From: a virus
IMG/VR virus record: IMGVR_UViG_3300045988_175993
Span: 1 to 52,183 of that record
Strand: one strand, 5' to 3'
DNA length: 52,183 bases
Part shown: piece after piece, positions 5,186 through 52,183 of the stretch
Numbering within the stretch: position 1 is the first letter of the stretch
Layout of the letters: every line of letters begins with the position of its first letter
Translations under genes and position numbers: made by a program
Notes under the pieces: model-generated
Databases searched by the model: none
The model's input: only the letters and a program-made list of their open reading frames with translations
What the model was told of the DNA's origin: nothing

Positions 5186-5446
5186 TCATATCCCATATCT
5201 TTCCCTCAGCTTTGTTTGAGCTCTTTTGACTTCATCAATTGGTCTGTGCTGCTTAATCAGATCATCTATCTCAGAGCTGAATATTCCAATGTAATACTCA
5301 TGATTACAGTGAGAACACCGAAAATACTTGTAGTATGTGTGCTTATCCACGTGCTTTTGCTTTATCTTTATGTGGAACTTCTTTCCACAAAAGTTGCATA
5401 CAGGATCGCATACTGGCTTGGGTTTATTCTTCTGAGACAGGAGCAT
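5186..5446 (-). CDS. Small zinc-ribbon protein
   Basis: 86 aa with two Cys pairs (CDPVCNFCGKKFH ... CSHCNHEY). Overlaps the end of glyA. Confidence 0.6.
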   Translation of the reverse strand: MLLSQKNKPKPVCDPVCNFCGKKFHIKIKQKHVDKHTYYKYFRCSHCNHEYYIGIFSSEIDDLIKQHRPIDEVKRAQTKLRERYGI

Positions 5447-6620
5447 AATTTTTCACCATCCCTTGTATAATCTCATCGATCTTATGTGCAACAAAGACAA
5501 AGTCTTCTTCGACATATCCTCTAGTGGTCATAGCAGCTGTCCCTATTCTGAGACCGCTTGCTTGCATAGGACTACGAGTCTCATTGGGTACACAATTCTT
5601 GTTCAAAGTTATCTTGTGTTTATCTAGCTCATCTTGAACCATCTTTCCAGACAGCTGAGGATGGGTATGAGAAAGATCAATCAAGAAAAGATGATTGTCT
5701 GTTCCTCCGGTGATCACTTCATATCCCATGGATACAAATTCTTCTGCCATTGCTTTGCTATTCTTCACAACCTGGTGGATATAACGCCAATAGTCAAGAT
5801 TAAGAGCTTCTTCAGCACAAATAGCCTTTGCTGCAATTATATTCTCAAGTGGACCACCCTGAGTCCCGGGGAATACAGCTGAATCTACTTGTTTCTCATA
5901 CTGAGGCTTACAAAAGATCAATCCACCACGAGGACCACGCAGAGTCTTATGTGTAGTTGTTGTAACTACATCTGCTAAACCAAAAGGAGAAGGATGATCA
6001 TTAGCAACAACAAGACCAGCTATGTGAGCCATGTCAACCATGAATATGGGATTGTATCCTGGATTCCGATCTCGAACATTTTGAATGAGGGAATACATCT
6101 TTTCAAAATCTATTATGCGAGGATAAGCAGAAGCTCCTGCAAGGATCAAATTGGGACGGAACAGGGAAATTTTTCTCAGAAACTCATCATAGTTGATATA
6201 ACCCTTGGCATCTACACCATAGTGAATTACTTCAAACAGTTTGCCAGATATATTCACAGGAGATCCATGAGACAAGTGTCCTCCGCAGTTGAGGCTCATA
6301 GAAAGAACTTTATCACCAGGCTTGAGAAAAGCCATCATTGCAGCCAAATTTGCATTTGCTCCAGAATGAGGCTGGACATTAACATGATAGTTAGTCTTAA
6401 AGACCATTTTCCAGAGTTCTTGGCAATAGGATTCAAGCTCGTCAACAACCTCGCAACCACCATAATATCTATGGTATGGTTTACCCTCAGCATACTTATT
6501 TGTAAAGCAAGATCCCATTGCTTTTAAGACATTGCCACTGACAAAATTCTCACTTGCAATAAGCTCAATTGTATCTATCTGTCTTTTCTGTTCTTTTTCA
6601 ATAAAATCACGAGCCCTCAT
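5424..6620 (-). CDS. glyA: Serine hydroxymethyltransferase
   Basis: ELIASENFVS, NKYAEGKPYHRYYGGCE, and the PLP-lysine motif VVTTTTHKTLRGPRGG. At 398 aa it is full length. Confidence 0.93.
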   Translation of the reverse strand: MRARDFIEKEQKRQIDTIELIASENFVSGNVLKAMGSCFTNKYAEGKPYHRYYGGCEVVDELESYCQELWKMVFKTNYHVNVQPHSGANANLAAMMAFLKPGDKVLSMSLNCGGHLSHGSPVNISGKLFEVIHYGVDAKGYINYDEFLRKISLFRPNLILAGASAYPRIIDFEKMYSLIQNVRDRNPGYNPIFMVDMAHIAGLVVANDHPSPFGLADVVTTTTHKTLRGPRGGLIFCKPQYEKQVDSAVFPGTQGGPLENIIAAKAICAEEALNLDYWRYIHQVVKNSKAMAEEFVSMGYEVITGGTDNHLFLIDLSHTHPQLSGKMVQDELDKHKITLNKNCVPNETRSPMQASGLRIGTAAMTTRGYVEEDFVFVAHKIDEIIQGMVKNYAPVSEE

Positions 6621-9440: not shown

Positions 9441-9926
9441 TTATTCTCCTTGGGTTGAAGATTTACGATTGCTCCCGTCTGTACAAGATATGCAGGCTCC
9501 TCCAGCTCGCAAAGACTTAAAATCACCATAGTGATCGCATCCAACACAAGAACAGTGTTCCGTATCAGTAAAGGTAACTTTTCTATCCTCAAGGGTGATA
9601 TCTTGGCTTTCTGTTTTCTGAAGCCACCTATCCAAGCGCTCAACTTTGCTAGCTATCCTTGACTTGATATCAGAATCTGTAAGACCCATGATATGAACGA
9701 TATGGTCCAATACAATGAATACATCTGCAACCTCATCGAGAGCTTTGTTGTACAAACCTTTTACTGCTCGTTCTGAATCGGTATACCTTGGGTATTTGGC
9801 ACAAACAGCAGCAAGCTCACAAAGTTCTTCATTCGAAACAAGGATTTGAGCAGTATCGCCATACACATGGCGAGCTCTAGCTGTGACTTTGGCTTCTTCT
9901 TCGGTCAGGAATTTGGTGTAATTCAT
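9441..9926 (-). CDS. MazG-like all-alpha NTP pyrophosphohydrolase with Cys-rich C-terminal extension
   Basis: Metal-binding pattern SNEELCELAAVCAKY ... ALDEVADVFIVLDH (E..E / E..D). The tail is CSCVGCDHYGD...CISC. Confidence 0.7.
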   Translation of the reverse strand: MNYTKFLTEEEAKVTARARHVYGDTAQILVSNEELCELAAVCAKYPRYTDSERAVKGLYNKALDEVADVFIVLDHIVHIMGLTDSDIKSRIASKVERLDRWLQKTESQDITLEDRKVTFTDTEHCSCVGCDHYGDFKSLRAGGACISCTDGSNRKSSTQGE

Positions 9927-10405
9927 CTGTCTGTATTATCCTCCATCCAATTAGGTTCATACATCACATCAATGTTGTACAAATCAAATATCTCTTCAGT
10001 TGGACCGCTTATGCGAGCAGATCCTCCATATACAACCTTTGTGATTCCAGCAGATACAATTGCTCTAGCACAAGACTCACAAGGATATCTTGTTACATAA
10101 ATAGTAGCTCCATCCGTGGATATCCCTCTTTGAGCAGCTCCTGTAATAGCATCTATCTCACTGTGAATAGCTCTACAGTCCTCAGGATTTCTATGGGATT
10201 TACTGTCATTGCCATACTTCTCTATCCTCAAGCATTCCCTGTGCTTGCACAAGTCAGGCATAGCGCGGTTTGCTCCCAAACCAATCACAGTCCCGTCTTT
10301 AATGATTGCAGATCCTACAGAGACCTTCTTACAGCCACTGTGTTTCATTGCAAAATCATATGCGAGATCGAGAACTGTGAACCTGTTTTCTGTCCGTCCA
10401 GTCAT
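9923..10405 (-). CDS. dCMP/CMP deaminase (zinc-dependent)
   Basis: HSEIDAI (H-x-E) and YPCESCARAI (PC..C). Start moved to ATG 10405 (RBS GGAGGGG), giving an ATGA overlap with the upstream stop. Confidence 0.88.
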   Translation of the reverse strand: MTGRTENRFTVLDLAYDFAMKHSGCKKVSVGSAIIKDGTVIGLGANRAMPDLCKHRECLRIEKYGNDSKSHRNPEDCRAIHSEIDAITGAAQRGISTDGATIYVTRYPCESCARAIVSAGITKVVYGGSARISGPTEEIFDLYNIDVMYEPNWMEDNTDR

Positions 10406-11220
10406 TTTAACCCCTCCATGAATTCTTGAATTTCTTTCCAATCAAACTTGATACTCTCAACCCCTGAGCGGGTCATAGCAACCTTGATCAATCCAAGGTG
10501 AGTACAAGCACGTTGGAACTTTCGTACTCTGCGATGCTGTTTCTCTTGTATTGTTCCTCTTTCTGAGGCATTACAGCCCCCTTTACCAACCCCCATAGCT
10601 GTACAATCATACTGTATCTCAGTGGTCTTTACACACTCAAGACCGTATGTATAGCATTCAAGTTGAAGAAACAAGTCTTCATTCCCCACAAGCCTGCTAG
10701 TCTTATAATTCAACCCAGCTTCTACAATGGCTTTTACATTTATGCCCACAGCTTGTTGAAGCTGCGCTCGAGGACAAGAACCAAGGTCTGACTCTTTCAT
10801 AGACCAACTGAAAGGACGATATGAAGCTCCGAACATTGCCTCATCACCCCAAAGCATCTCCCAATACAGAAGAACATCGGTCCAATTCTGAGGCTCACCC
10901 ATGATTGTTCCAGAAGCTCTGACGAATTGCTTCTCCTCATCCCAAACAGAAAAGTCCAACCGACCGACATCATCATCTATCATGAATATCCGATCAATTC
11001 CTTTTGAATAAGCATAATTGACCATCTTCTGCCGAGTTTCTCCAATGTTGCGGACTTTTTTCAACTTCACTATATGTGTATCAGGTCTCTTCTTCAACCA
11101 AGCATAATCGCTTGCTTCTTCCTCTCTGACAAATACATATAGGGGAAACTCATACAAAACACTTCGCTTGAGGAAAGTTGCATTGGGTCTTTGATACGAA
11201 GGTACAAATACAGGTATCAT
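10402..11220 (-). CDS. GT-A-fold glycosyltransferase-like protein (candidate DNA-base glycosyltransferase)
   Basis: N-terminal IPVFVPSYQRP and a DxD motif in IFMIDDDVGR. It sits between a Pplase-like gene and the deaminase. The family assignment is tentative. Confidence 0.55.
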   Translation of the reverse strand: MIPVFVPSYQRPNATFLKRSVLYEFPLYVFVREEEASDYAWLKKRPDTHIVKLKKVRNIGETRQKMVNYAYSKGIDRIFMIDDDVGRLDFSVWDEEKQFVRASGTIMGEPQNWTDVLLYWEMLWGDEAMFGASYRPFSWSMKESDLGSCPRAQLQQAVGINVKAIVEAGLNYKTSRLVGNEDLFLQLECYTYGLECVKTTEIQYDCTAMGVGKGGCNASERGTIQEKQHRRVRKFQRACTHLGLIKVAMTRSGVESIKFDWKEIQEFMEGLK

Positions 11221-11307
11221 TCAATCTCCTCCATCTAAGAATTTTCCAAGCCAGTACAACAGCCACAAAAAAGCTACTATTATAATGAGATACCCTGCCA
11301 AAATCAA
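11221..11307 (-). CDS. Possible 28-aa transmembrane micro-protein (TTG start)
   Basis: GAGGAGG RBS lies 6 nt upstream of TTG. Translation (M)ILAGYLIIIVAFLWLLYWLGKFLDGGD. Its TGA abuts the ATG of the glycosyltransferase. Not in the ORF track because it is under 60 aa. Confidence 0.3.
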   Translation of the reverse strand: MILAGYLIIIVAFLWLLYWLGKFLDGGD

Positions 11308-11319
11308 CCTTGTACCTCC

Positions 11320-11682
11320 TCAGAACACAAACTTCTCTGTGACTTCCTCTACTCTGGCTTCGTATCTCCTTTGGAGGTACTCTACAGCTTGTATGTATCC
11401 TTCTTCGGAGAATTCAAACCTCTCACAACGAGTTCCGTTTATAGAAACTACTAGAGCTGGATTTGAAGAACAGTTGTATGTATATCCACGGTATACTGTG
11501 CCATCTGGATTGACCTTCTCCAATCGGTATGAACCTATTTGAAAGACGTTGAACTTTGTTACAGCATCATGGTCTTGGTATGCACGACCAGTGTATCGAT
11601 CGTATTTGGTAATAACATCCCATTCAATCGTGATGGGGATTTGGTTGTATTGCTCCCAAGGAGGGAATTTCGATTTTAACAT
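11320..11682 (-). CDS. Hypothetical protein (120 aa)
   Basis: Start set at ATG 11682 (RBS GGAAAGGG; 5 nt after the upstream stop) instead of track start 11775. No motif recognised. Confidence 0.7.
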   Translation of the reverse strand: MLKSKFPPWEQYNQIPITIEWDVITKYDRYTGRAYQDHDAVTKFNVFQIGSYRLEKVNPDGTVYRGYTYNCSSNPALVVSINGTRCERFEFSEEGYIQAVEYLQRRYEARVEEVTEKFVF

Positions 11683-11686
11683 GCAT

Positions 11687-12694
11687 TCAGCCCTTTCCAT
11701 TGTATTTCTTTCTTGGTCTACCTGTACCATCTTTAGCTCTGATGTATTTGGACAACTCACAGAAACAATTCTCAAGGCTCATTACATTGAAGCACTGATC
11801 GTACTCGGGAAGATCCCAGAATATCTCAGAACAATCCCAATCTTTGCCAAGGACTTCTTTGAAGAGCCTTTCTAGGTTATCTCTAACCCAAAAGATACAT
11901 TCCTCATAGCTCATCCCGTCTCTATCCTTGAACAGGTAATTCAACCCCATCTGACATCCAGGACCAGCAATAGTGAATTCATTCTCAGAGAACGGGAACT
12001 GCTTGATATAAGTCATATCGACAAATATTTGATAAGCCAAGAAATTCCCAAGTCCCATATAGCTTCGGAGTGAATCATATACGTCAGATTGCTTTCTAGC
12101 TGCCTTAATCTGACTCACGATATCCTCATCAAGAAGATGCCGTATAAAGTAGAGGATTCTCATCTCCATACTATTATCAGGAGTATCGTTGGGCAGATAC
12201 CACTTTAGTGCGCGTTTCAGACCTCCAGTGTTAAATGCACCAGTGAAGAAAATGCGATGAGGATCGTCTTTTAGAGCAGCTTCGAACAAAGATCTATACC
12301 ACTCAGGATTCCATCTCTCTTCAGACTCATAGAATGCAATAGGCATACCAATCAACTCTGAAGTCTCATGCTTATTATAGAGCCTGAATAGGATACAATT
12401 CATCAATTTGTCTTCATAGCAAAGAGCGGGATTGGTTGCTATGTTCTTAATAAGCCACTTGCTTTCTCGGTCATGCTCTCTACGGATATTGGTGAATCTG
12501 AAATTCAGCAATACATCGTCTTTAGTCCAGGGAGGATCTTTCTTGAGCACATCTTTCTTGATGTGAATACCATATCTTCGCTTGATGAATTGATACAAGT
12601 ATTTGAGATTTCTTTCATCAATTACTGGATGAGCTTTCTCAATCTTCTTTTGATTCACACCACAGAATTTGGTATCAGCCTTTTTAGTCTTCAT
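11687..12694 (-). CDS. aGPT-Pplase (alpha-glutamyl/putrescinyl thymine pyrophosphorylase) clade-3-like protein; the CDS is certain, the function tentative
   Basis: PPWTKDDVLLNFRFTNIRREHDRESKW and YMGLGNFLAYQIFVDMTY...AGPGCQMGL match what I recall of this HhH-glycosylase-fold family. No HMM was run. Confidence 0.5.
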   Translation of the reverse strand: MKTKKADTKFCGVNQKKIEKAHPVIDERNLKYLYQFIKRRYGIHIKKDVLKKDPPWTKDDVLLNFRFTNIRREHDRESKWLIKNIATNPALCYEDKLMNCILFRLYNKHETSELIGMPIAFYESEERWNPEWYRSLFEAALKDDPHRIFFTGAFNTGGLKRALKWYLPNDTPDNSMEMRILYFIRHLLDEDIVSQIKAARKQSDVYDSLRSYMGLGNFLAYQIFVDMTYIKQFPFSENEFTIAGPGCQMGLNYLFKDRDGMSYEECIFWVRDNLERLFKEVLGKDWDCSEIFWDLPEYDQCFNVMSLENCFCELSKYIRAKDGTGRPRKKYNGKG

Positions 12695-13278
12695 CTGGCA
12701 TTCTCCATAAGCTTTGATGCAATCATGTCCGCCTGATGAGTCCAGAGCACATTGGGAAAAGCTCGAATTGCTTCATCATACTCACCCCAAGCATCCGTTT
12801 CATAAGCCCCCATATGGAATCTGATACAAAGCCTTTCTTCTGTGGTAAGATACATGTAGTCTTCAATTTTCAAAACTGAATCCATTCCATGAATTTCTGA
12901 AAACTTGATCTGATCAACCTTATGGGTGTAACCATACTCAAGTTCTCCTGTCAAAGGATTCTTTTCTTGAAATGTCTGATAAGCCCCGATTTTGGTAACA
13001 TCATGAAGCATACCGATAATCAGAGGACTCGAGCTTCTGGTCCAAGTGCAGAATCCTGCCTGAGTAAACCATTCCAGTTGCTGGAACACGTTCCTCGAGT
13101 GATCATACAGTCCTCCATAGTAGTTGCAGTGATGCTTTGCCGCAGCCGGAGCTCTGAAGAAGTCCGTGGTACAAAGCCACTTAAAGGGGAATTCATCTTT
13201 TGAGATATTGTTGAGCCTCAGAAGTCTTTCCAGGTCTTCCTGCCTCGCTTCCTCAGAATCAAATAAGGTTTTCAGCAT
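12691..13278 (-). CDS. HD-domain phosphohydrolase
   Basis: GGLYDHS, MLHDVTK and HQADMIAS give the H...HD...D metal ligands. It is the first gene behind the promoter at 13312-13340. Confidence 0.8.
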   Translation of the reverse strand: MLKTLFDSEEARQEDLERLLRLNNISKDEFPFKWLCTTDFFRAPAAAKHHCNYYGGLYDHSRNVFQQLEWFTQAGFCTWTRSSSPLIIGMLHDVTKIGAYQTFQEKNPLTGELEYGYTHKVDQIKFSEIHGMDSVLKIEDYMYLTTEERLCIRFHMGAYETDAWGEYDEAIRAFPNVLWTHQADMIASKLMENAR

Positions 13279-16190: not shown

Positions 16191-16610
16191 TTAATTTTCC
16201 TCCTTGTGGTCAAATATATGCCAAAGATTATAACCTTTCCGCTCAAGAATCTCCAAACAATCATCCAAATAGAAGATATCTTGTTCAGGATAGACAGTGC
16301 CTGAAAGCTTCTGATTCAGCTCTGTAAGATTTGGAGCATTGGTTTCATCATAGACGATCTTGGGAAGATCCTTGCCTCGATAACCTATATCGAACCACTG
16401 AAGATCAACTTTGTATTTCCGGAACATCATCTCCCGCATCACTTTAAGATGATAGCAGAACAGCCACTCTCTAGGGTGATCAAATACATAGCCAACTACG
16501 GGATCAGGGGTGTTCCAGTTTCCTTTTCTGAGGGCGCAGCACTCACGGTGTGCGCCCAGCAGGTAACGTTTGGGAAGATATGGAATCAAGGCTTCATGCC
16601 AGAGCTTCAT
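16191..16610 (-). CDS. TIGR02328-like protein (pyrimidine-dimer DNA glycosylase/DenV-related fold)
   Basis: The N-terminus MKLWHEALIPYLPKRYLLGAHRECCALRKGNW is the hallmark I recall for this family (MRLWH..LIP.LP...LL.q.RECCa.R). Confidence 0.6.
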   Translation of the reverse strand: MKLWHEALIPYLPKRYLLGAHRECCALRKGNWNTPDPVVGYVFDHPREWLFCYHLKVMREMMFRKYKVDLQWFDIGYRGKDLPKIVYDETNAPNLTELNQKLSGTVYPEQDIFYLDDCLEILERKGYNLWHIFDHKEEN

Positions 16611-46412: not shown

Positions 46413-46790
46413 TTAATATCCTACAACTGTGTATTCGGAAACACATCCATTTAATTCAGGATTTGTCACGTGTATAGCACCATTTGAAACAAGTCCAGGA
46501 GCTCTCTTCAAGGTGTTCATAAACTCTTTCAAAGTTGCCATACTGTAGATTATCCCTGTACTGCAACCAACAGAACCCCATTTTCTGAGCTCGAGTCGTT
46601 GCTTTTGGCTAGCCTCATATTTGTTATCAGGAGACTTCAGCTCAATCTTGAACATACGTCCTTCATAGCATCCAGTTATATCAGGTCTTCCTGACTGATG
46701 GGAATTTCCTGATACATTCTCTGCCTTGCACCCTGGAATACTGTTTAGGTATTCCAGGGCATTAGATTGGAAATTTGATTCAAGACCCAT
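46413..46790 (-). CDS. VRR-NUC domain nuclease
   Basis: GRPDITGCYEGRMFKIELKSP is the D...E-x-K motif. Start set at ATG 46790 (MGLESNF). Confidence 0.75.
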   Translation of the reverse strand: MGLESNFQSNALEYLNSIPGCKAENVSGNSHQSGRPDITGCYEGRMFKIELKSPDNKYEASQKQRLELRKWGSVGCSTGIIYSMATLKEFMNTLKRAPGLVSNGAIHVTNPELNGCVSEYTVVGY

Positions 46791-47199
46791 AAGCAAACCC
46801 TGTAGGACGTAGCCAAGACAACCCCAACTTCTGTGCCCAAAATACAGGAGACTGGGAACAAGGTATGGATTTGTCATCTATGTAGACATCTGCATACACT
46901 TTGCGAGTATCGTTATGGAACATGGCAATAGTCTCTGGTATGTTCTGATTTACTGCATCAAATTCCAAACCCATGGATTTACAGAATTCTACAGCAGCAT
47001 CAAGATTCCGAGCAGGTGTATCATTATCTCGACTTGTCCAGAGAATCAATTTAATCCCACATTTCTGCAAGGTTATGCAGATATTAAACATTTCCTGAAA
47101 CGGTTTTCCTATCTCGGGAAATTTATCCTCTACAAGAGTTCCATCAAAATCTATTGCTACAATCTTGGGAAGCTCTTCCATGTTTGCTTTAGTTATCAT
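46780..47199 (-). CDS. HAD-superfamily phosphatase-like protein
   Basis: Motif I IVAIDFDGTLV, motif II ILWTSR, motif IV YIDDKS. Start set at ATG 47199 (ATGA overlap). Confidence 0.7.
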   Translation of the reverse strand: MITKANMEELPKIVAIDFDGTLVEDKFPEIGKPFQEMFNICITLQKCGIKLILWTSRDNDTPARNLDAAVEFCKSMGLEFDAVNQNIPETIAMFHNDTRKVYADVYIDDKSIPCSQSPVFWAQKLGLSWLRPTGFAYGS

Positions 47200-47561
47200 T
47201 TTCGTAGATCCCTTTCCATATGTGTTGTTACCCAAACGCGATTCCAGCCTTGCCGGTCTATTGTTGCTTCACGCATAAGATGGGGATATGCATTAGAGTA
47301 CTTGTCTTTGATCAAACTCCTCAAAATGATGATATCTTTCAAAGTTGTCATGGGCAGATCTATATTGAAATCTTCTTTTGCCCAAGCAGAAACGCATTCA
47401 CCGATATCTCGACGCTCTATCCCTTTCTGTTCAAGGAATTTGACATACAAAGATTTTGGTGCATAGCAAAAGTGCTCCCAAGAGATCCTATCTCGGTTTT
47501 CATCAAGCACCTTCAAGGCAAACTTGACTAAACCATCTTTCATCAGTTCATCCCAACTCAT
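47196..47561 (-). CDS. Hypothetical protein (121 aa)
   Basis: Coupled between the hydroxymethylase and the HAD gene. No motif recognised. Confidence 0.7.
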   Translation of the reverse strand: MSWDELMKDGLVKFALKVLDENRDRISWEHFCYAPKSLYVKFLEQKGIERRDIGECVSAWAKEDFNIDLPMTTLKDIIILRSLIKDKYSNAYPHLMREATIDRQGWNRVWVTTHMERDLRK

Positions 47562-48259
47562 TAAGAACCAACTCCCGGAGATACAGCCAGAGTCTTCTCC
47601 CAGTCTCTTTTGTACAGATGCAAAGACCCAGCGACATGCGTATAAGTTCCTATGGATGTCCCAAGCTCCATAGCCATCTTCATCTGAAGAAAACAGAAGC
47701 TGAACATATCATAGGGTACACCCATCCAGATATCATTTGACCGCATATACACAGTCATATGAAGTGCATAATCGCGGATGAAAAACTGAAGAGCTATTGT
47801 ACAGGGTACATCTTTGGTGGGAGCGTTACTGGCATCCTTGATGTGTATCACTGCCTGACGGCTATTGGGATCTGCTTTGAGAAGATTCTTCACATATTCC
47901 CATTGATCAAACCCAAACTTCTCAAAGATTCTCCAACCATAAGCAGAATTATTGGTCTTCCCATCATCAGAAATGTCTGCCCACTTTTGAGCAAACCGGG
48001 AGATATCTTTGACCTTGTTGGAGCCGGAAAGATACCAAGCCAGTTCTCCTACAGCATACCGCATAGGCATTTTGCGAATAGGACTGGTGACGATGTTTCG
48101 AGTAGGATCGTCTACAACGAAGATAGCATCCAGGAATTCTCCAACTACATCTCCATCTCTGGAAGAATCAGCAAACCCAGAGTTAGCTTGAGCATTAAGC
48201 TCGGTGAAAGCTTTTTCCCAAACTTCATTGACAGTTCGTCCTTCAAACATGATAGCCAT
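47561..48259 (-). CDS. Thymidylate-synthase-fold pyrimidine hydroxymethylase, T4 gp42 (dCMP hydroxymethylase)-like
   Basis: GELAWYLSG, NSAYGWRIF, ADPNSRQAVIHI, catalytic Cys DVPCTIALQFFIRD, YMRSNDIWMGVPYDMF (Asp where ThyA has Asn177), GSLHLYKRD. Start set at ATG 48259 (RBS aaggaggt). Confidence 0.8.
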   Translation of the reverse strand: MAIMFEGRTVNEVWEKAFTELNAQANSGFADSSRDGDVVGEFLDAIFVVDDPTRNIVTSPIRKMPMRYAVGELAWYLSGSNKVKDISRFAQKWADISDDGKTNNSAYGWRIFEKFGFDQWEYVKNLLKADPNSRQAVIHIKDASNAPTKDVPCTIALQFFIRDYALHMTVYMRSNDIWMGVPYDMFSFCFLQMKMAMELGTSIGTYTHVAGSLHLYKRDWEKTLAVSPGVGS

Positions 48260-48876: not shown

Positions 48877-49527
48877 TTACCTCCAACCAATAAATAGTGT
48901 TGTCCAGTTCTTTTCTGTCAATACAGGATCTTTCAAGACTTCTGGAAATTGCTTTTTGAGATTTTTAATCAATCGAGGAGCCATCTTTCTGTTATCCCCA
49001 TGAAGAAGATGAAGCTCAATTGCTATCGCTTCAACAGTGAGGGGAAGATCTTTGAAATTCAAATCATATTCTCCTCCCTCGATATCTATCTTGAGGATCT
49101 GAGGGGAATATCGATCTAAGGCATCCTTAAAGGAAACTGTTTTAACCTCATAGGATTCTCTTCCCTGTATCTCTTGGAGAGAATGCATGCCTTTATTCTT
49201 TCCTGAATTCACATAGAAGAGTGCAGTTCCTGTAGAATTTGATACAGCTCTCTTTATGAGCTTGACTCGGTCATCAAAGCCCTGCTTCTGGAACATTCCT
49301 ATGTTGTCTTTATCAGGCTCAAATGAAACAACCTGAATAGCTCCATGCGCTAATGCTTGGAATGTAAAAGCACCTATATTGGCTCCGATATCCATCACAG
49401 ATTTACCTTTGCAGAGCTCGAGCAATGGATTGTATGTTCGTTGTTCTTTAATAACATACTCATCCAAAGTATCCGGTCTACACCAAAGACCAGTGGTTTT
49501 TTCTTTGTACAATGTCTCACTCCTCAT
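48877..49527 (-). CDS. FkbM-family SAM-dependent methyltransferase
   Basis: VMDIGANIGAFTF, VVSFEPD, and the hallmark ILKIDIEGGE. Confidence 0.8.
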   Translation of the reverse strand: MRSETLYKEKTTGLWCRPDTLDEYVIKEQRTYNPLLELCKGKSVMDIGANIGAFTFQALAHGAIQVVSFEPDKDNIGMFQKQGFDDRVKLIKRAVSNSTGTALFYVNSGKNKGMHSLQEIQGRESYEVKTVSFKDALDRYSPQILKIDIEGGEYDLNFKDLPLTVEAIAIELHLLHGDNRKMAPRLIKNLKKQFPEVLKDPVLTEKNWTTLFIGWR

Positions 49528-50110
49528 ATTTTGATATAGTTTTTAAGAATGCAGGTAACATTCTTGACTTTGGTACTTTAGAAGAATCAACTCGTATACA
49601 GGTGAATCCTTCTCCCTTGAATTTTTCGTGACTTCTCTCAACAGAGATTCGTTTTCCTGCCACGAGATCCTCTTTGATGGGTTTACCCCCATTCCGCTTT
49701 TGGATACGGTCTAAGCAGACCTCGAGTGGCGGAAGCAGAGATATGATTAAGACCTGAATACCAAATTGCTTTTCAACTCTATGGAAGAGCTCTGCATAGC
49801 TGGAGAATACTGTGCTGCACAAGATACCCTCCATGATGATATTGAAATCCGGATACATGCTAATAGCCGCATATAGTGTTGCTATAGTGCATTCCATATT
49901 TCGAATACCATCGAGTCCCCCAGTTTTATTGAAATATGTACCCAAAGCAATCCAACCATAAGAAGGAAATGCTGTAAAGGCTCCCATTCGTTTTCCATCG
50001 CTGTATTTCAGTTCTTGAACAAACATCTCAGGGTCATCCATCATTGACATAGGAATGGTAGATTTTCCTGCACCGTTGCAACCTCTAATGTTCACAAGAA
50101 TTCTACTCAT
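49517..50110 (-). CDS. P-loop kinase (candidate 5-hydroxymethylpyrimidine DNA kinase, 5-HMUDK-like; function tentative)
   Basis: Walker A GCNGAGKST. About 200 aa. Translationally coupled to the Pplase-like gene upstream and the methyltransferase downstream. Confidence 0.5.
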   Translation of the reverse strand: MSRILVNIRGCNGAGKSTIPMSMMDDPEMFVQELKYSDGKRMGAFTAFPSYGWIALGTYFNKTGGLDGIRNMECTIATLYAAISMYPDFNIIMEGILCSTVFSSYAELFHRVEKQFGIQVLIISLLPPLEVCLDRIQKRNGGKPIKEDLVAGKRISVERSHEKFKGEGFTCIRVDSSKVPKSRMLPAFLKTISKYEE

Positions 50111-51042
50111 TCAAGTACTCCTGTAGTCAGGAAGAGTTTCCCTCGAGATTTACGAATACCCTGCCATCCATGGCATTCTCCTCGTAAACTATCTTGAACA
50201 GTCTTTTCTCGCAGATCCCAAATATCAATGCCATACTTTGCAAGGATCTTTTCTGTAGACAAGCATTCCTCCAATTGTCTATCAGCATAGTATCCAAGAT
50301 ATCTGGACCCTTTGAAGAGCTTGCGAAAAAAGCAAAGATTAGACTCAATCACAATTTTAGGCTTGCTAAACCTGCTTGCTAAAGTATCAACCATCTTGTT
50401 ATATCTATCAAGATCATAATCTTTGTTCTCAATGGCTTCGTCATTACAAAGAAGATGTGCCATTCCTTCAACTACAGTTTGTCCGCAATTTTTCCAGTCA
50501 AGATGTGTAGGATCAGAATAGTATTCCGGCTGCATACCATACAAAGCATCAAAGAAGAGGTATGCTCCATGTGGACCAAAGAATCGCCAGTTCTTTGTAA
50601 TCTCTTTGTATGTTGTATCAAAACCCTGAGCAAGTAGAGGTTCAAGATACTCTGTCATGTTTCCATGAGATAGCTTGTAGATAGATCGTATAGCCGGAAT
50701 GACTTGATCATTATTCTTTAGATACTTCTTGTCTGGATTGAACCATAGTGTATCTTTTGAGGCTCTCCAAAAGGTTGAAATCGCTTTTGGTCTTACATCA
50801 CTAATAGCCGGAAATTCTTCAAGGAATCTCATAGTTGTAGTACAAGAATATGAAAGTCCATAAAGAACAGCTAACCACAAACAAGATTCAAGATCAAGGT
50901 CTCTTGCTTTTACATAAGGTCTCATGAGCTGATAGTCTTCCCCATCCATATATTTTGTAACCGGATCAGGAGTCATCAATTCAGAGAACACTTTTCTTCT
51001 CAGTTTTTTAGAATCCCCGGGGATTCCATAGTCATTTAGCAT
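50107..51042 (-). CDS. aGPT-Pplase-like (HhH-glycosylase-fold) protein, paralogue-like to 11687..12694; function tentative
   Basis: Start set at ATG 51042 (GGAGGAG RBS 6 nt upstream; the track start is a TTG inside the RBS). RFFGPHGAYLFFDALYGM aligns with YMGLGNFLAYQIFVDMTY of the other ORF. Confidence 0.4.
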   Translation of the reverse strand: MLNDYGIPGDSKKLRRKVFSELMTPDPVTKYMDGEDYQLMRPYVKARDLDLESCLWLAVLYGLSYSCTTTMRFLEEFPAISDVRPKAISTFWRASKDTLWFNPDKKYLKNNDQVIPAIRSIYKLSHGNMTEYLEPLLAQGFDTTYKEITKNWRFFGPHGAYLFFDALYGMQPEYYSDPTHLDWKNCGQTVVEGMAHLLCNDEAIENKDYDLDRYNKMVDTLASRFSKPKIVIESNLCFFRKLFKGSRYLGYYADRQLEECLSTEKILAKYGIDIWDLREKTVQDSLRGECHGWQGIRKSRGKLFLTTGVLE

Positions 51043-51058
51043 AGACATCTCCTCCAAA

Positions 51059-51128: not shown

Positions 51129-51806
51129 TCAATCATCATCCTCTTCCCAGTCATCTTCGTCGTCATCCTCGTCCTCATCTTTCTTGGACTTGGCTGACTT
51201 CTTATTGGTTGTCTTCTTCGAAGATTTGGGCTCAGGCTTCTTTGACTTCTTCACAGGGGGCTCATCCTCGTCTTCGTCTTCATCCTCATCATCGTCCTCG
51301 TCCTCATCGTCATCTTCAGGAGGTCTCTTTGACTTGGAAGAAGATGCCTTTGCAGGAGCCTTTGCAGTCTTCTTTACAGGCTTCTCTTCCTCATCGTCAT
51401 CTTCATCGTCTTCGTCGTCGTCTTCAGAATCATCAGGTGCTTTGATATAGGATGCGATCTTGGCACGCTTCTGACCATTGTATTCATCACGAATGACGTC
51501 AATGATGCAGATCTTTCCTTCCAGTTTGTTCAGATCAAGCTCGATCTTTCCGTTGGCTTTTACTCCAACAGCCTCAAGGAAGGACTTGAGCTTCCAAAGA
51601 GCCTTGTCATTGAGAGAGAAAGTCTCAAATACCTGACAGCCCTCACCATCTCCTTTGATGACCTCAAAGACAGCCTTGAAACAGTCGTCTCCACTTCCCT
51701 GAACAGTACCCAGCTCTATCTTCTTGAGCTTTGCAAGATGTTCTCCTTCAGGACATCTTCTGTAACTCTCCACACCAGTGAAGTCAACTTTGTACTTTTT
51801 TGCCAT
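51129..51806 (-). CDS. DUF669-type SSB-like protein with very long acidic/lysine-rich tail
   Basis: The N-domain of about 125 aa (MAKKYKVDFTGVESY...FEVIKGDGEG...ALWKLKSFLEAVG) fits DUF669, and the gene sits next to the Sak4-like ATPase. The tail ends DEDDWEEDDD, like an SSB tip. Confidence 0.65.
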   Translation of the reverse strand: MAKKYKVDFTGVESYRRCPEGEHLAKLKKIELGTVQGSGDDCFKAVFEVIKGDGEGCQVFETFSLNDKALWKLKSFLEAVGVKANGKIELDLNKLEGKICIIDVIRDEYNGQKRAKIASYIKAPDDSEDDDEDDEDDDEEEKPVKKTAKAPAKASSSKSKRPPEDDDEDEDDDEDEDEDEDEPPVKKSKKPEPKSSKKTTNKKSAKSKKDEDEDDDEDDWEEDDD

Positions 51807-51821
51807 TGTTTTGTATCCTCC

Positions 51822-52183
51822 TTAATTTGTTTCAACACTTATGATTTCCATGAATTTTTCATAAGTGGGGTTGATAATGCGAGCAGGGACTTTGATGCTT
51901 GGATCAATCTGAAGCTTTGTCCAATAGTAGGGATTAGGACCAATGTCAGCAGCATACTTCACGACTTCTTTAGTCGAATTGCCTTTTACAACTTCCTTTA
52001 CAATCTTTGTTGTATGGATACCATAATTTGCCATGCCTTCCAAATAAGTGCGAGCACCTTTTGAAACTGAAGGACGAACATCAGGAGATATCTCATCTTC
52101 CATACCCTCGATTGTATCTGTACTCTCATGACAAGTCAAGACAACTATGTGTTTTTTCGCAAGCTTATACATATCCTTGATGA
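51822..52183 (-). CDS. Sak4-like AAA_24 ATPase, C-terminal part (same gene as 1..492)
   Basis: Stop at 51822. The frame is open to the right edge, and bases 52065-52183 duplicate 1-119. Confidence 0.8.
   Translation of the reverse strand, partial: IKDMYKLAKKHIVVLTCHESTDTIEGMEDEISPDVRPSVSKGARTYLEGMANYGIHTTKIVKEVVKGNSTKEVVKYAADIGPNPYYWTKLQIDPSIKVPARIINPTYEKFMEIISVETN
52065..52183. repeat. Terminal overlap, identical to 1-119
   Basis: See the feature at 1-119. Confidence 0.95.

Follow-up and report, generated by a model that had tools for sequence, protein, structure and literature searches.

Which pyrimidine would a phage modify, and by what route, if it encodes both a hydroxymethylase of the cytosine type and the kinase and transferase of thymidine-hypermodifying phages? 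This question is raised by the IMG/VR virus record IMGVR_UViG_3300045988_175993, whose 52,183 nucleotides (nt), taken at full length, are referred to below as the window. Near its right end, the minus strand encodes a predicted divergent amino-acid:DNA transferase (ADDT, formerly aGPT-Pplase2) and a P-loop kinase of the 5-hydroxymethyldeoxyuridine (5-hmdU) DNA kinase family (5-HMUDK), followed by an FkbM-family methyltransferase dependent on S-adenosylmethionine (SAM), a deoxynucleoside monophosphate (dNMP) kinase, and a putative pyrimidine 5-hydroxymethylase with the thymidylate synthase (TS) fold. We estimate at roughly 85% the probability that these genes belong to a functional DNA hypermodification pathway that runs in two stages and is of the 5-HMUDK/ADDT kind; the phage probably makes a DNA base that is not yet described. 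In the version placed first here, which we hold at somewhat less than even odds, a phage deaminase would turn part of the 5-hydroxymethyl-dC pool into 5-hydroxymethyl-dU, and the kinase and ADDT would act on 5-hydroxymethyluracil (hmU). The identity of the base, the donor nucleophile, the methyl acceptor, and every activity named below are inferred. The proteins that carry the argument are as follows.

50107-51057, minus strand: predicted ADDT, 316 amino acids (aa) from TTG or 311 aa from the ATG at 51042
49517-50110, minus strand: P-loop DNA kinase, 5-HMUDK family, 197 aa
48877-49527, minus strand: FkbM-family SAM-dependent methyltransferase, 216 aa
48385-48873, minus strand: dNMP kinase, thymidylate-kinase family, 162 aa
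47561-48280, minus strand: TS-fold pyrimidine 5-hydroxymethylase with dCMP signature, 239 aa
11687-12694, minus strand: aGPT-Pplase1 (HMUDK helical domain), stand-alone, 335 aa

An earlier annotation, made by a model from the letters and translations of this DNA (the sequence-only reading), described three overlapping open reading frames (ORFs) upstream of the dNMP kinase and the hydroxymethylase, and all three are found at that place on the minus strand. The ADDT and kinase genes overlap by 4 nt (ATGA) and the kinase and FkbM genes by 11 nt; the dNMP kinase gene starts 3 nt past the FkbM stop codon, and the TS-fold gene is next. The order ADDT, kinase, a slot of variable content, hydroxymethylase, and, further on, an SNF2 helicase is kept in more than 10 related contigs, down to 50% protein identity. 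Because of this conservation, the arrangement is not due to chance.

The first protein of the series matches the Pfam family PF18724 with a score of 30.3 bits (gathering cut-off, 26.2; E value, 4.5e-7) over positions 12 to 228 of the 232-position model, and the same precomputed Pfam call is found on many of its homologues. Its start is likely the ATG at 51042, which is the choice of gene callers in homologues that are 95% identical. The AlphaFold2 model, built on an alignment of 36 homologues (pLDDT, 94.9), is all-helical and HhH glycosylase-like, as is PaMx11 gp46 (PUGT; PDB 8Z2M). Foldseek pairs the model with 8z2m at a probability of 0.99 (TM, 0.57/0.62; 312 columns; E value only 0.25), and the next matches are AGOG HhH glycosylases; the E values of these fold matches are weak, at about 0.2. 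The predicted catalytic motif, E238-S239-N-L-C242 (50332-50346), aligns with E243-T244-V-L-C247 of the M6-type ADDT; E238, S239, C242, and D38 are invariant across the 36 homologues. Experiments on clade-2 enzymes have established that activity requires the Cys and its neighboring Glu and that the reaction gives an exocyclic methylene (PMC8989533). The metal held by E243/T244 of PaMx11 gp46 binds thymine O4 (PMC11472151), and residues D25, E222, T223, and C226 matter in the enzyme of phage SH-Ab 15599 (PMC13458397). The third metal ligand, Asp24/25 of the known enzymes, is probably Asp38 in the window protein, given an uncertain alignment at this point. Retention of the Glu/Ser pair suggests that the O4-metal contact is kept, which would favor a uracil-type base.

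The donor side of the predicted pocket looks different. In YuA Pplase2, K159 and K248 hold the glycine carboxylate (PMC13458397), and a low-confidence alignment places Leu167 and Phe243 at these positions in the window ADDT. Since both donor-binding lysines are replaced, its donor likely differs from the glycine of M6 and YuA, and the subfamily probably has its own pocket and its own donor, insofar as such alignments can be trusted. In the diamine-using 15599 enzyme, a Gly follows the catalytic Cys.

Several features of the ADDT count against the version placed first. The PF18724 score exceeds the cut-off by only 4 bits, and the protein is very divergent from the characterized members. Sequence searches of the PDB with the ADDT and with its profile gave nothing usable, and hhalign comparisons of the window family with the M6-type profile and with Pplase1 gave negligible probabilities. 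The residue mapping depends on low-confidence alignments and on a fold match with a Foldseek E value of 0.25, and the base-stacking Trp of the PaMx11 and M6 enzymes is replaced by His, so that a change of base is conceivable. The low-probability hhalign comparisons still matched up both the FGP hairpin and the catalytic motif. Two local HMMER iterations from the window family never reached the M6-type ADDT; they reached the types found in LysYB1 and in the related loci L019/L020 and L054-59 (L numbers denote loci retrieved for comparison).

The HhH-like hairpin FFGPHGAYLFFD of the ADDT lies at 50542-50586. The sequence-only reading had likened a string in this protein, RFFGPHGAYLFFDAL (residues 158-172 of the 316-aa form), to YMGLGNFLAYQIFVDM (residues 212-227 of ORF 11687-12694) and had covered both with one regular expression, G-x-G-x-[FA]-[LY]-[AL]-[YF]-[QF]-x3-D. 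Both strings are in place. The expression literally fits the 335-aa ORF, whereas the 311-aa protein reads G-x-x-G-A-Y-L-F-F-D. When aligned by hhalign, the two hairpin motifs pair only weakly (E value, 0.13) and with a gap of one residue. The resemblance nevertheless looks real, because an equivalent hairpin-helix motif recurs in the classical members of both families, as GFGPWIGFKIADM in the M6-type ADDT and GWGPFMAYEVVTDL in the M6-type Pplase1.

More than 160 homologues of the window ADDT were found, most of them on metagenomic contigs of about 50 kb, and a profile search of 1.84 billion representative proteins placed 419 representative clusters (50% identity) in the subfamily at E values of 0.001 or less. 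The ADDT-like domain of LysYB1 is 28% identical to the window protein. In another ADDT subtype, found in LysYB1 gp48 (L002, 7902-9821) and in L019/L020, the Glu-Thr that precedes the catalytic Cys is replaced by Gly-Lys. This subtype thus occurs both in an Asn-type phage of the Spounavirinae, where it is fused to a C-terminal domain of about 300 aa, and in Asp-type gut-phage contigs; these versions are 42% identical, as measured against the LysYB1 ADDT domain over the full length of the ADDT of L020, an Asp-type contig (the two types are defined below by a residue of the hydroxymethylase).

The 197-aa protein is clearly a member of the 5-HMUDK family, judging from its match to PF18748 (77.8 bits; cut-off, 27; E value, 1e-21). 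Its Walker A motif, GCNGAGKST, is encoded at 50057-50083 (residues 10-18). An alignment of 194 aa shows 45% identity with the kinase half of gp186 of Bacillus phage SP10, and identity with the kinase of Lysinibacillus phage LysYB1 is 44%; the closest homologues from cultured phages are thus SP10 gp186 and LysYB1 gp48/gp49, which have the same Walker A context, LVNIRGCNGAGKST. ORF 11687-12694 matches PF18723, the former aGPT-Pplase1 family, now named "5-hmdU DNA kinase, helical domain" in Pfam, with 219.8 bits and an E value of 6e-65, as well as phrog_2396 (E value, 2e-83). Its identity with the C-terminal half of SP10 gp186 is 26%, and its motifs GxGxFxAYQ...D and ExxxCE are conserved and common to the SP10, M6-type, and Pam3-type members. 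PDB sequence searches with the kinase and with Pplase1 gave nothing usable. In SP10, whose product is alpha-glutamylthymidine, gp186 is a fusion of kinase and Pplase1, whereas in the window each has its own gene, with about 14 kb between the two on the circle described below.

With these matches, the family calls of the sequence-only reading hold up. The checks that it had proposed with profile and fold searches gave hits to PF18724, PF18748, and PF18723 and an ADDT model that resembles HhH glycosylases, in agreement with its description of the 311-aa protein as Pplase-like; the 197-aa P-loop kinase falls in the 5-HMUDK family, and ORF 11687-12694, which it had linked to the Pplases, belongs to the related Pplase1 family. 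Its motifs GCNGAGKST and KIDIEGGE (residues 146-153 of the FkbM protein) are both present. The FkbM call is borne out by PF05050 (40.4 bits; E value, 4.5e-10) and TIGR01444 (69.7 bits).

The TS-fold enzyme (PF00303; E value, 1e-26) has the CMP hydroxymethylase MilA as its best PDB match (E value, 4e-36), ahead of thymidylate synthases (about 1e-20) and T4 gp42 (1.6e-13). Its predicted catalytic Cys lies in KDVPCT (47798-47815), where the Asp at Cys-3 occupies the position of ThyA L143. A second Asp, in GVPYDMFSF (47696-47722), is at the position of ThyA N177, and the Asp at ThyA D169 (R-S-N-D) is kept. An acidic residue at L143 is diagnostic of a hydroxymethyl product, N177D of cytosine, and D169N of a 5-hydroxy-dCMP synthase (PMC13326640). 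The signature L143D, D169 kept, and N177D thus marks the window enzyme as a predicted hydroxymethylase of the cytosine type, as the sequence-only reading had proposed and as the MilA match also indicates; T4 gp42 and MilA likewise have Asp at both ThyA-143 and ThyA-177. Enzymes with Asp and Asn at N177 are termed Asp-type and Asn-type here.

Three other assignments were considered and rejected. The enzyme is not a dUMP hydroxymethylase of the kind found in thymidine-hypermodifying phages, as it has Asp at N177 and only 239 aa. The hydroxymethylases of SP10, LysYB1, Bordetella phage CN1, and the M6-like phage SN1 have Asn at N177 and 351 to 394 aa, which makes them 110 to 150 residues longer; those of SP10 and LysYB1, of about 380 to 390 aa, carry a C-terminal extension that the window enzyme lacks. 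A 5-hydroxy-dCMP synthase of the RB69 gp48 type, with Asn at D169, is excluded by the retained D169, and the serine hydroxymethyltransferase (SHMT) of the phage points to folate chemistry. An ordinary thymidylate synthase is excluded by Asp at both the L143 and N177 positions. The genome has neither a second TS-fold gene nor a ThyX motif, and for hmU to be supplied the deaminase described below would be required.

The nearest relatives of the hydroxymethylase, at 57% identity, are those of Agathobaculum phages. One of these, AB434P2 (L001, OP172633; 1314-5582), has an Asp-type hydroxymethylase with no kinase or ADDT; its gene is flanked by genes for a weakly choline/ethanolamine-kinase-like protein, a cytidylyltransferase-like protein (PF01467; E value, 2e-11), and two proteins of 330 to 360 aa. 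This cluster is a candidate for a different pathway that tailors 5-hydroxymethylcytosine (hmC) in a cultured gut phage.

The remaining pathway genes lie at the other end of the window. A 119-bp exact terminal repeat (1-119 and 52065-52183) shows that the window is a circular assembly and represents a complete phage genome of 52,064 bp with 42% GC; with this repeat, the modification genes near the left and right ends join up in one contiguous minus-strand module. The sequence-only reading had passed over the remaining part of the pathway, namely, the dCMP deaminase, the MazG-like nucleoside-triphosphate (NTP) pyrophosphatase, the TAGT glycosyltransferase, the HD phosphohydrolase, and the SHMT:

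12691-13278, minus strand: HD-type metal-dependent phosphohydrolase (phrog_5889, phrog_28876)
10402-11220, minus strand: TAGT DNA glycosyltransferase (PF20691, phrog_842)
9923-10441, minus strand: dCMP-deaminase-family zinc deaminase (PF00383, PF14437, phrog_174)
9441-9926, minus strand: MazG-like nucleoside-triphosphate pyrophosphohydrolase (phrog_2245)
5424-6620, minus strand: SHMT (PF00464)

With the circle closed, the module runs from the HD phosphohydrolase through Pplase1, TAGT, the dCMP deaminase, the MazG-like pyrophosphatase, a primase/helicase, SHMT, a family-A polymerase, a PD-(D/E)XK nuclease, and a DUF669 protein to the ADDT and the kinase, and then through FkbM, the dNMP kinase, the hydroxymethylase, a HAD-like protein, and a VRR-NUC protein to the SNF2 helicase. 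All pathway genes are thus in one minus-strand early module. A scan for promoter and terminator patterns gave nothing above the level of shuffled sequence. The same scan, in which total matches were near the shuffle level, found no convincing minus-strand terminator inside the block; from the ADDT gene to the end of the hydroxymethylase gene, the sole minus-strand match (47996-47975) falls within the hydroxymethylase ORF.

The predicted pool enzymes and TAGT have the following family matches. The dNMP kinase (PF02223, E value of 3.7e-10; TIGR00041, 47 bits; phrog_761) would phosphorylate the hydroxymethylated mononucleotide. The SHMT (PF00464; E value, 4e-137), an auxiliary enzyme that would provide the hydroxymethylase with methylene-tetrahydrofolate, is about 91% identical in the closest relative and was not detected in the majority of the other related loci. 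The deaminase matches PF00383 (E value, 3e-18) and PF14437 (E value, 4e-20). The MazG-like protein (phrog_2245; E value, 6e-11), which had no tblastn match in phage records, would remodel the dNTP pool. The HD protein (phrog_5889, E value of 1e-27; phrog_28876, E value of 2e-21; no Pfam match) is a candidate dNMP/dNTP-pool enzyme. TAGT matches PF20691 with 43 bits (cut-off, 27.5; E value, 6.6e-11).

Linkage of these genes was followed in 53 IMG/VR loci fetched for the presence of the deaminase or Pplase1. Most of them contain the submodule HD, Pplase1, (TAGT), deaminase, and NTP pyrophosphatase. The HD gene is immediately upstream of Pplase1 in 29 of the 53, counting only matches placed upstream; about 17 have TAGT between Pplase1 and the deaminase, and in L013 and L019/L020 TAGT follows the kinase. 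The deaminase adjoins either Pplase1 or the ADDT-HMUDK pair in nearly all fetched loci, directly followed in nearly all by the MazG-like gene, and in six loci (L054-L059) the ADDT-kinase pair replaces Pplase1 directly upstream of the deaminase.

From this gene set, the following course may be proposed. The Asp-type hydroxymethylase would convert dCMP to 5-hydroxymethyl-dCMP with methylene-tetrahydrofolate from the phage SHMT. Before replication, the MazG-like pyrophosphatase, HD hydrolase, deaminase, and dNMP kinase would reshape the nucleotide pool, and the hydroxymethylated pyrimidine would enter DNA via the phage family-A polymerase. In the version placed first, with the deaminase acting on part of the 5-hydroxymethyl-dC pool, the DNA would contain hmC as well as hmU. 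In replicated DNA, the P-loop kinase would phosphorylate the 5-CH2OH group, probably with the help of the stand-alone Pplase1. The ADDT would then flip out the base, its Cys242 would attack C6, and expulsion of the phosphate would give an exocyclic methylene ready for nucleophile capture, the nucleophile presumably not being glycine bound in the M6/YuA manner. TAGT would act on the remaining hydroxymethyl groups, and FkbM might contribute an optional late O-methylation of the sugar, the hydroxymethyl oxygen, or the ADDT adduct.

To our knowledge, all characterized 5-HMUDKs and ADDTs act on hmU. This base is favored here because the window kinase is 44 to 45% identical to kinases of Asn-type hmU phages (SP10, LysYB1), because the O4-metal ligands are retained in the ADDT, because the deaminase is present in 6 of 8 related ADDT contigs (counted by cross-matching of contig names), beside hypermodification genes, and because the dNMP kinase is thymidylate-kinase-like. 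The proposed deamination has precedents: enzymes of the dCMP-deaminase family can deaminate 5hm-dCMP (PMC10305735), phage deaminases that accompany cytosine-type TS homologues often select 5-modified dC nucleotides, and seven such phage deaminases gave 5hmdU in DNA in vivo (bioRxiv 10.1101/2024.12.05.627091). By sequence analysis, phage dioxygenases linked to kinase/AADT genes are predicted thymine dioxygenases that make hmU (PMC13229309).

Other observations speak against a route through hmU. The 5hmdU-making deaminases came from predicted dCMP-methylase phages, not from hydroxymethylase phages (bioRxiv 10.1101/2024.12.05.627091), and the trio of NTP pyrophosphatase, deaminase, and dNMP kinase is typical of cytosine-modifying phages (PMC8670742). 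The window HD protein has no detectable similarity to the M6-type HD protein, and no dTTPase was identified in the window. The simplest reading of an Asp-type hydroxymethylase with T4-like pool enzymes is hmC in DNA and no hmU.

On that reading, which is a tentative one and which we rank second, the kinase and the divergent ADDT would act directly on hmC. The kinase would produce 5-phosphomethyl-dC and the ADDT would displace the phosphate on the cytosine ring, with Glu238 not a metal ligand but the proton donor to N3, a role that it would have in common with the Glu of C5-cytosine methyltransferases. Tailoring of the remaining or resulting groups would fall to TAGT and FkbM, and the deaminase would only make dUMP for the host TS, as in T4. 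Such a route takes one step fewer than the hmU model, accounts for the full dCMP signature and for MilA being the best solved relative, and agrees with a set of pool enzymes that is reminiscent of T4 and of the domains linked to cytosine-modified metavirome contigs. The strong divergence of the ADDT, with the stacking Trp changed to His and both glycine-binding lysines replaced, would also fit, and kinase action on 5hmC has already been proposed by Burke et al. (PMC8256090). However, the retained Glu/Ser(Thr) pair is the one that holds the O4-binding metal, the kinase and ADDT subtypes are 42 to 45% identical to those of Asn-type hmU phages, the kinase/AADT-linked dioxygenases have been reassigned as predicted thymine dioxygenases and hmU producers, and the deaminase is tightly linked to Pplase1 or ADDT-HMUDK. 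The use of hmU by every characterized 5-HMUDK/ADDT counts against it as well. The sequence-only reading had posed this same choice, between a kinase/Pplase pair acting on hmC in DNA and hmU produced indirectly; both branches still stand, and action on hmU is the one we prefer.

A census of kinase loci bears on the choice. Among 80 IMG/VR loci retrieved by a kinase profile, a sample biased toward relatives of the query, the TS homologue within 10 kb was Asp-type in 35, Asn-type in 31, absent in 11, and truncated at the site in 3, which leaves 66 scorable loci. All kinase-bearing relatives of the window lineage have Asp at N177 (35 of 66, including the unrelated 106-kb contig L156), as a direct cytosine route would lead one to expect. 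No discriminating residue emerged from a comparison of Pplase1 and ADDT sequences from Asp and Asn contexts. In a neighbor-joining tree of the kinases, an Asn-associated clade of Bacillus and Lysinibacillus phages is the sister of the main Asp-associated clade, with another Asp group (L118, L122, L123) branching off outside the two; a third Asp type, from L156, falls among proteobacterial Asn types. This tree is rough and has no support values, a further point to be set against the preferred reading. The interleaving of Asp- and Asn-associated kinases, which adds to the similarity with hmU-phage enzymes and so counts in favor of hmU, implies at least two to three apparent switches.

Such switches might mean that the kinase and ADDT do not discriminate between bases and that the pre-replicative enzymes set the base, in which case both hmC and hmU adducts would be made here. 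The base in PaMx11 gp46 is held mainly by Cys/Trp stacking, and base-specific hydrogen bonds are few (PMC11472151); in addition, homologues of FkbM and TAGT are found alongside Asp-type and Asn-type hydroxymethylases alike. Metal coordination of O4, however, is a base-specific contact for which an exocyclic amine is no substitute, and no literature report was found of an ADDT or HMUDK accepting hmC. We regard a non-discriminating pair as improbable.

The slot between the kinase and the hydroxymethylase differs among relatives of the window, as follows.

L003: dNMP kinase alone
Window: FkbM and dNMP kinase
L004-7, L010, L012: DUF1599 protein (105-151 aa) in place of dNMP kinase
L013 (ENA ERZ1767599 NODE_251, 9523-11437): TAGT, radical SAM/SPASM, and dNMP kinase
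L019/L020: TAGT, FkbM, and dNMP kinase

In L003, the closest relative (ADDT and kinase, 93% and 91% identical), the kinase gene is directly followed by the dNMP kinase gene. Because L003 cleanly lacks FkbM, the latter is an accessory tailoring gene in a variable slot. Phages with DUF1599 may rely on a host kinase for the modified mononucleotide, and the slot of L013 implies that the shared ADDT/kinase core leads to one more end product. The pyridoxal-phosphate (PLP), radical SAM, cupin, DUF1599, and PRA-PH genes of the relatives have no homologues within the window.

The FkbM protein has the conserved SAM motif DIGANIG (residues 46-52), and KIDIEGGE is likewise conserved; its model has the class I methyltransferase (Rossmann) fold (pLDDT, 94.8). 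The fold search returned only generic class I methyltransferases, with no clue to the substrate, and no literature was found that links FkbM to phage DNA modification. It may therefore be asked whether FkbM is an unrelated passenger, e.g., a moron or a host-directed or RNA/protein methyltransferase, in a recombination-prone slot. Its absence from the closest relative, the different cargo of the slot in different relatives, and the generic fold matches would all be expected of a passenger, as would a homologue in the phage region L021 with no hydroxymethylase within 6 kb and another, L025, in a bacterial metabolic context. The gene nevertheless overlaps the kinase gene, is followed closely by the dNMP kinase gene, and has the GC content of its neighbors, and homologues that are 38 to 68% identical lie in hydroxymethylase/TAGT/Pplase1/kinase clusters of at least four phage backbones (the window, L019/L020, L022/L024, and L023 with MW202657), so that a passenger is unlikely.

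In these other hydroxymethylpyrimidine modules, FkbM accompanies enzymes of both types. The Pam3-like contigs have the order Pplase1-cupin-FkbM-TAGT-hydroxymethylase (Asn-type)-PDDEXK-YfbR HD-PolA, and L023 and MW202657 combine FkbM with an Asp-type enzyme and a PRA-PH pyrophosphatase; some of the homologues have no kinase or ADDT nearby. FkbM thus tracks the hydroxymethyl group and a glycosyltransferase rather than the ADDT and is indifferent to the type of hydroxymethylase. As it follows hydroxymethylase/TAGT modules, the methyl target is as likely to be a sugar or the hydroxymethyl oxygen as an ADDT product. The sequence-only reading had implied an extra methylation step; FkbM is indeed present, with homologues in hydroxymethylation modules, but the step is not a fixed one, as it is missing from L003. 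In the Pam3-like contigs L022 and L024 (4877-8475), there is no P-loop kinase or ADDT within 6 kb of the series from Pplase1 to the hydroxymethylase, and this order suggests that Pplase1 can function in the absence of the kinase and that the partner of FkbM is the glycosyltransferase.

The thymidine-hypermodifying phages are among the closest known systems. M6, YuA, and PaMx11 are phages of Pseudomonas, ViI of Salmonella, PhiW-14 of Delftia, and SH-Ab 15599 of Acinetobacter. Like the window, they have a DNA kinase gene beside a clade-2 ADDT gene, and they share with the window ADDT the Glu-Thr/Ser-x-x-Cys motif and an HhH-like fold. A separate Pplase1, dCMP deaminase, HD hydrolase, and TS-fold hydroxymethylase are also common to thymidine-hypermodifying phages and the window, as are extra tailoring genes variously combined around the core. 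However, their hydroxymethylases are Asn-type (dUMP), whereas the window enzyme is Asp-type (dCMP), and the window ADDT represents a distant subfamily with no HMMER link to the M6-type and with the Lys159/Lys248 to Leu/Phe and Trp to His replacements. The window also lacks their PLP, radical-SAM, flavin adenine dinucleotide (FAD), and acetyltransferase tailoring genes and has FkbM and TAGT instead.

The T-even hmC pathway comprises, in T4, the gp42 dCMP hydroxymethylase, gp1 dNMP kinase, gp56 dCTPase, Cd deaminase, and glucosyltransferases. In both this pathway and the window, the hydroxymethylase comes with a DNA glycosyltransferase and with three pool enzymes (NTP pyrophosphatase, dCMP deaminase, and dNMP kinase). 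T4 has neither a DNA kinase nor an ADDT, whereas the window has both; furthermore, the dNMP kinase of the window is thymidylate-kinase-like, not gp1-like, and its glycosyltransferase is of the TAGT type, unlike the T4 alpha- and beta-glucosyltransferases.

The metavirome TET/5mYOX clusters (Burke 2021; T-dioxygenase paper, 2026) resemble the window in having a kinase and a Pplase beside a possible supplier of 5hmC, and their neighbors also include TAGT-type glycosyltransferases and O-methyltransferases. There, the hydroxymethyl group is made by oxidation after replication, whereas in the window it would be made before replication by a folate-dependent Asp-type enzyme; the kinase/AADT-linked subclass of these clusters is now predicted to be thymine-specific. 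A precedent for the hmU route is seen in the Xp12-type dCMP methylases with mSCD deaminases, where a cytosine-type TS homologue is paired with a deaminase that converts a 5-modified dC nucleotide to the dU nucleotide. The Xp12-type phages make 5mC and dT, with the deaminase within 3 kb of the TS gene, whereas in the window the two genes are about 14 kb apart.

No characterized system of this composition was found in the literature, in line with the sequence-only reading, nor was any description of a kinase/ADDT pair acting on hmC. Its further suggestion of an undescribed pathway stands in part: the composition is uncharacterized, but it forms a variant within a known picture, as combinatorial kinase/ADDT clusters in metaviromes have already been described (Lee et al. 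2021, PMC8989533) and the possibility that such kinases phosphorylate 5hmC has already been raised (Burke et al. 2021, PMC8256090). The window and its relatives define a lineage of phages of about 50 kb that pairs kinase/ADDT machinery with an Asp-type hydroxymethylase. We know of no characterized kinase/ADDT hypermodification that starts from anything other than hmU, produced either by a dUMP hydroxymethylase of the Asn type or, according to a recent proposal, by a thymine dioxygenase.

If deamination is the route, hmU would be reached from hm-dC nucleotides, and two modified pyrimidines at once would be possible. A stronger variant would have the Asp-type hydroxymethylase and the deaminase feed two hypermodifications, on C and on T, in one genome. 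Should the kinase and ADDT act directly on 5-hmC, a possibility that we deem real if not the foremost, kinase/ADDT chemistry would extend to cytosine, with a 5-(X-methyl)cytosine formed via 5-phosphomethyl-dC as the first cytosine counterpart, to which some strains would add glycosylation and FkbM O-methylation. The ADDT subfamily, with its 419 clusters and apparently remodeled donor pocket, is a likely source of new DNA adducts and of DNA-labeling enzymes, and the variable slot (FkbM, TAGT, radical SAM/SPASM, DUF1599) offers natural plus/minus comparisons for tailoring steps. Such modifications affect phage sequencing, restriction, and CRISPR or type IV targeting.

The phage has no close cultured relative; in a megablast search, the locus matched none of 50,697 phage records. 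Its host is probably a gut Firmicute, as inferred from the Agathobaculum-phage match of the hydroxymethylase and from a SleB-type cell-wall hydrolase encoded in the window. Just downstream of the hydroxymethylase gene, and kept in all relatives, are genes for a small HAD-like phosphatase (DxDxT; phrog_24386, phrog_1238) and a VRR-NUC-like nuclease (46780-47235 and 46413-46877, respectively, both on the minus strand); the former could be a dNMP nucleotidase of the pathway. The DUF669 protein (51129-51806, minus strand), which is SSB-like in our view, has a low-complexity C-terminal tail of about 100 residues of Asp, Glu, and Lys. A T4 endonuclease-V-like pyrimidine-dimer DNA glycosylase (PF03013; E value, 3e-16) is encoded at 16191-16610 on the minus strand.

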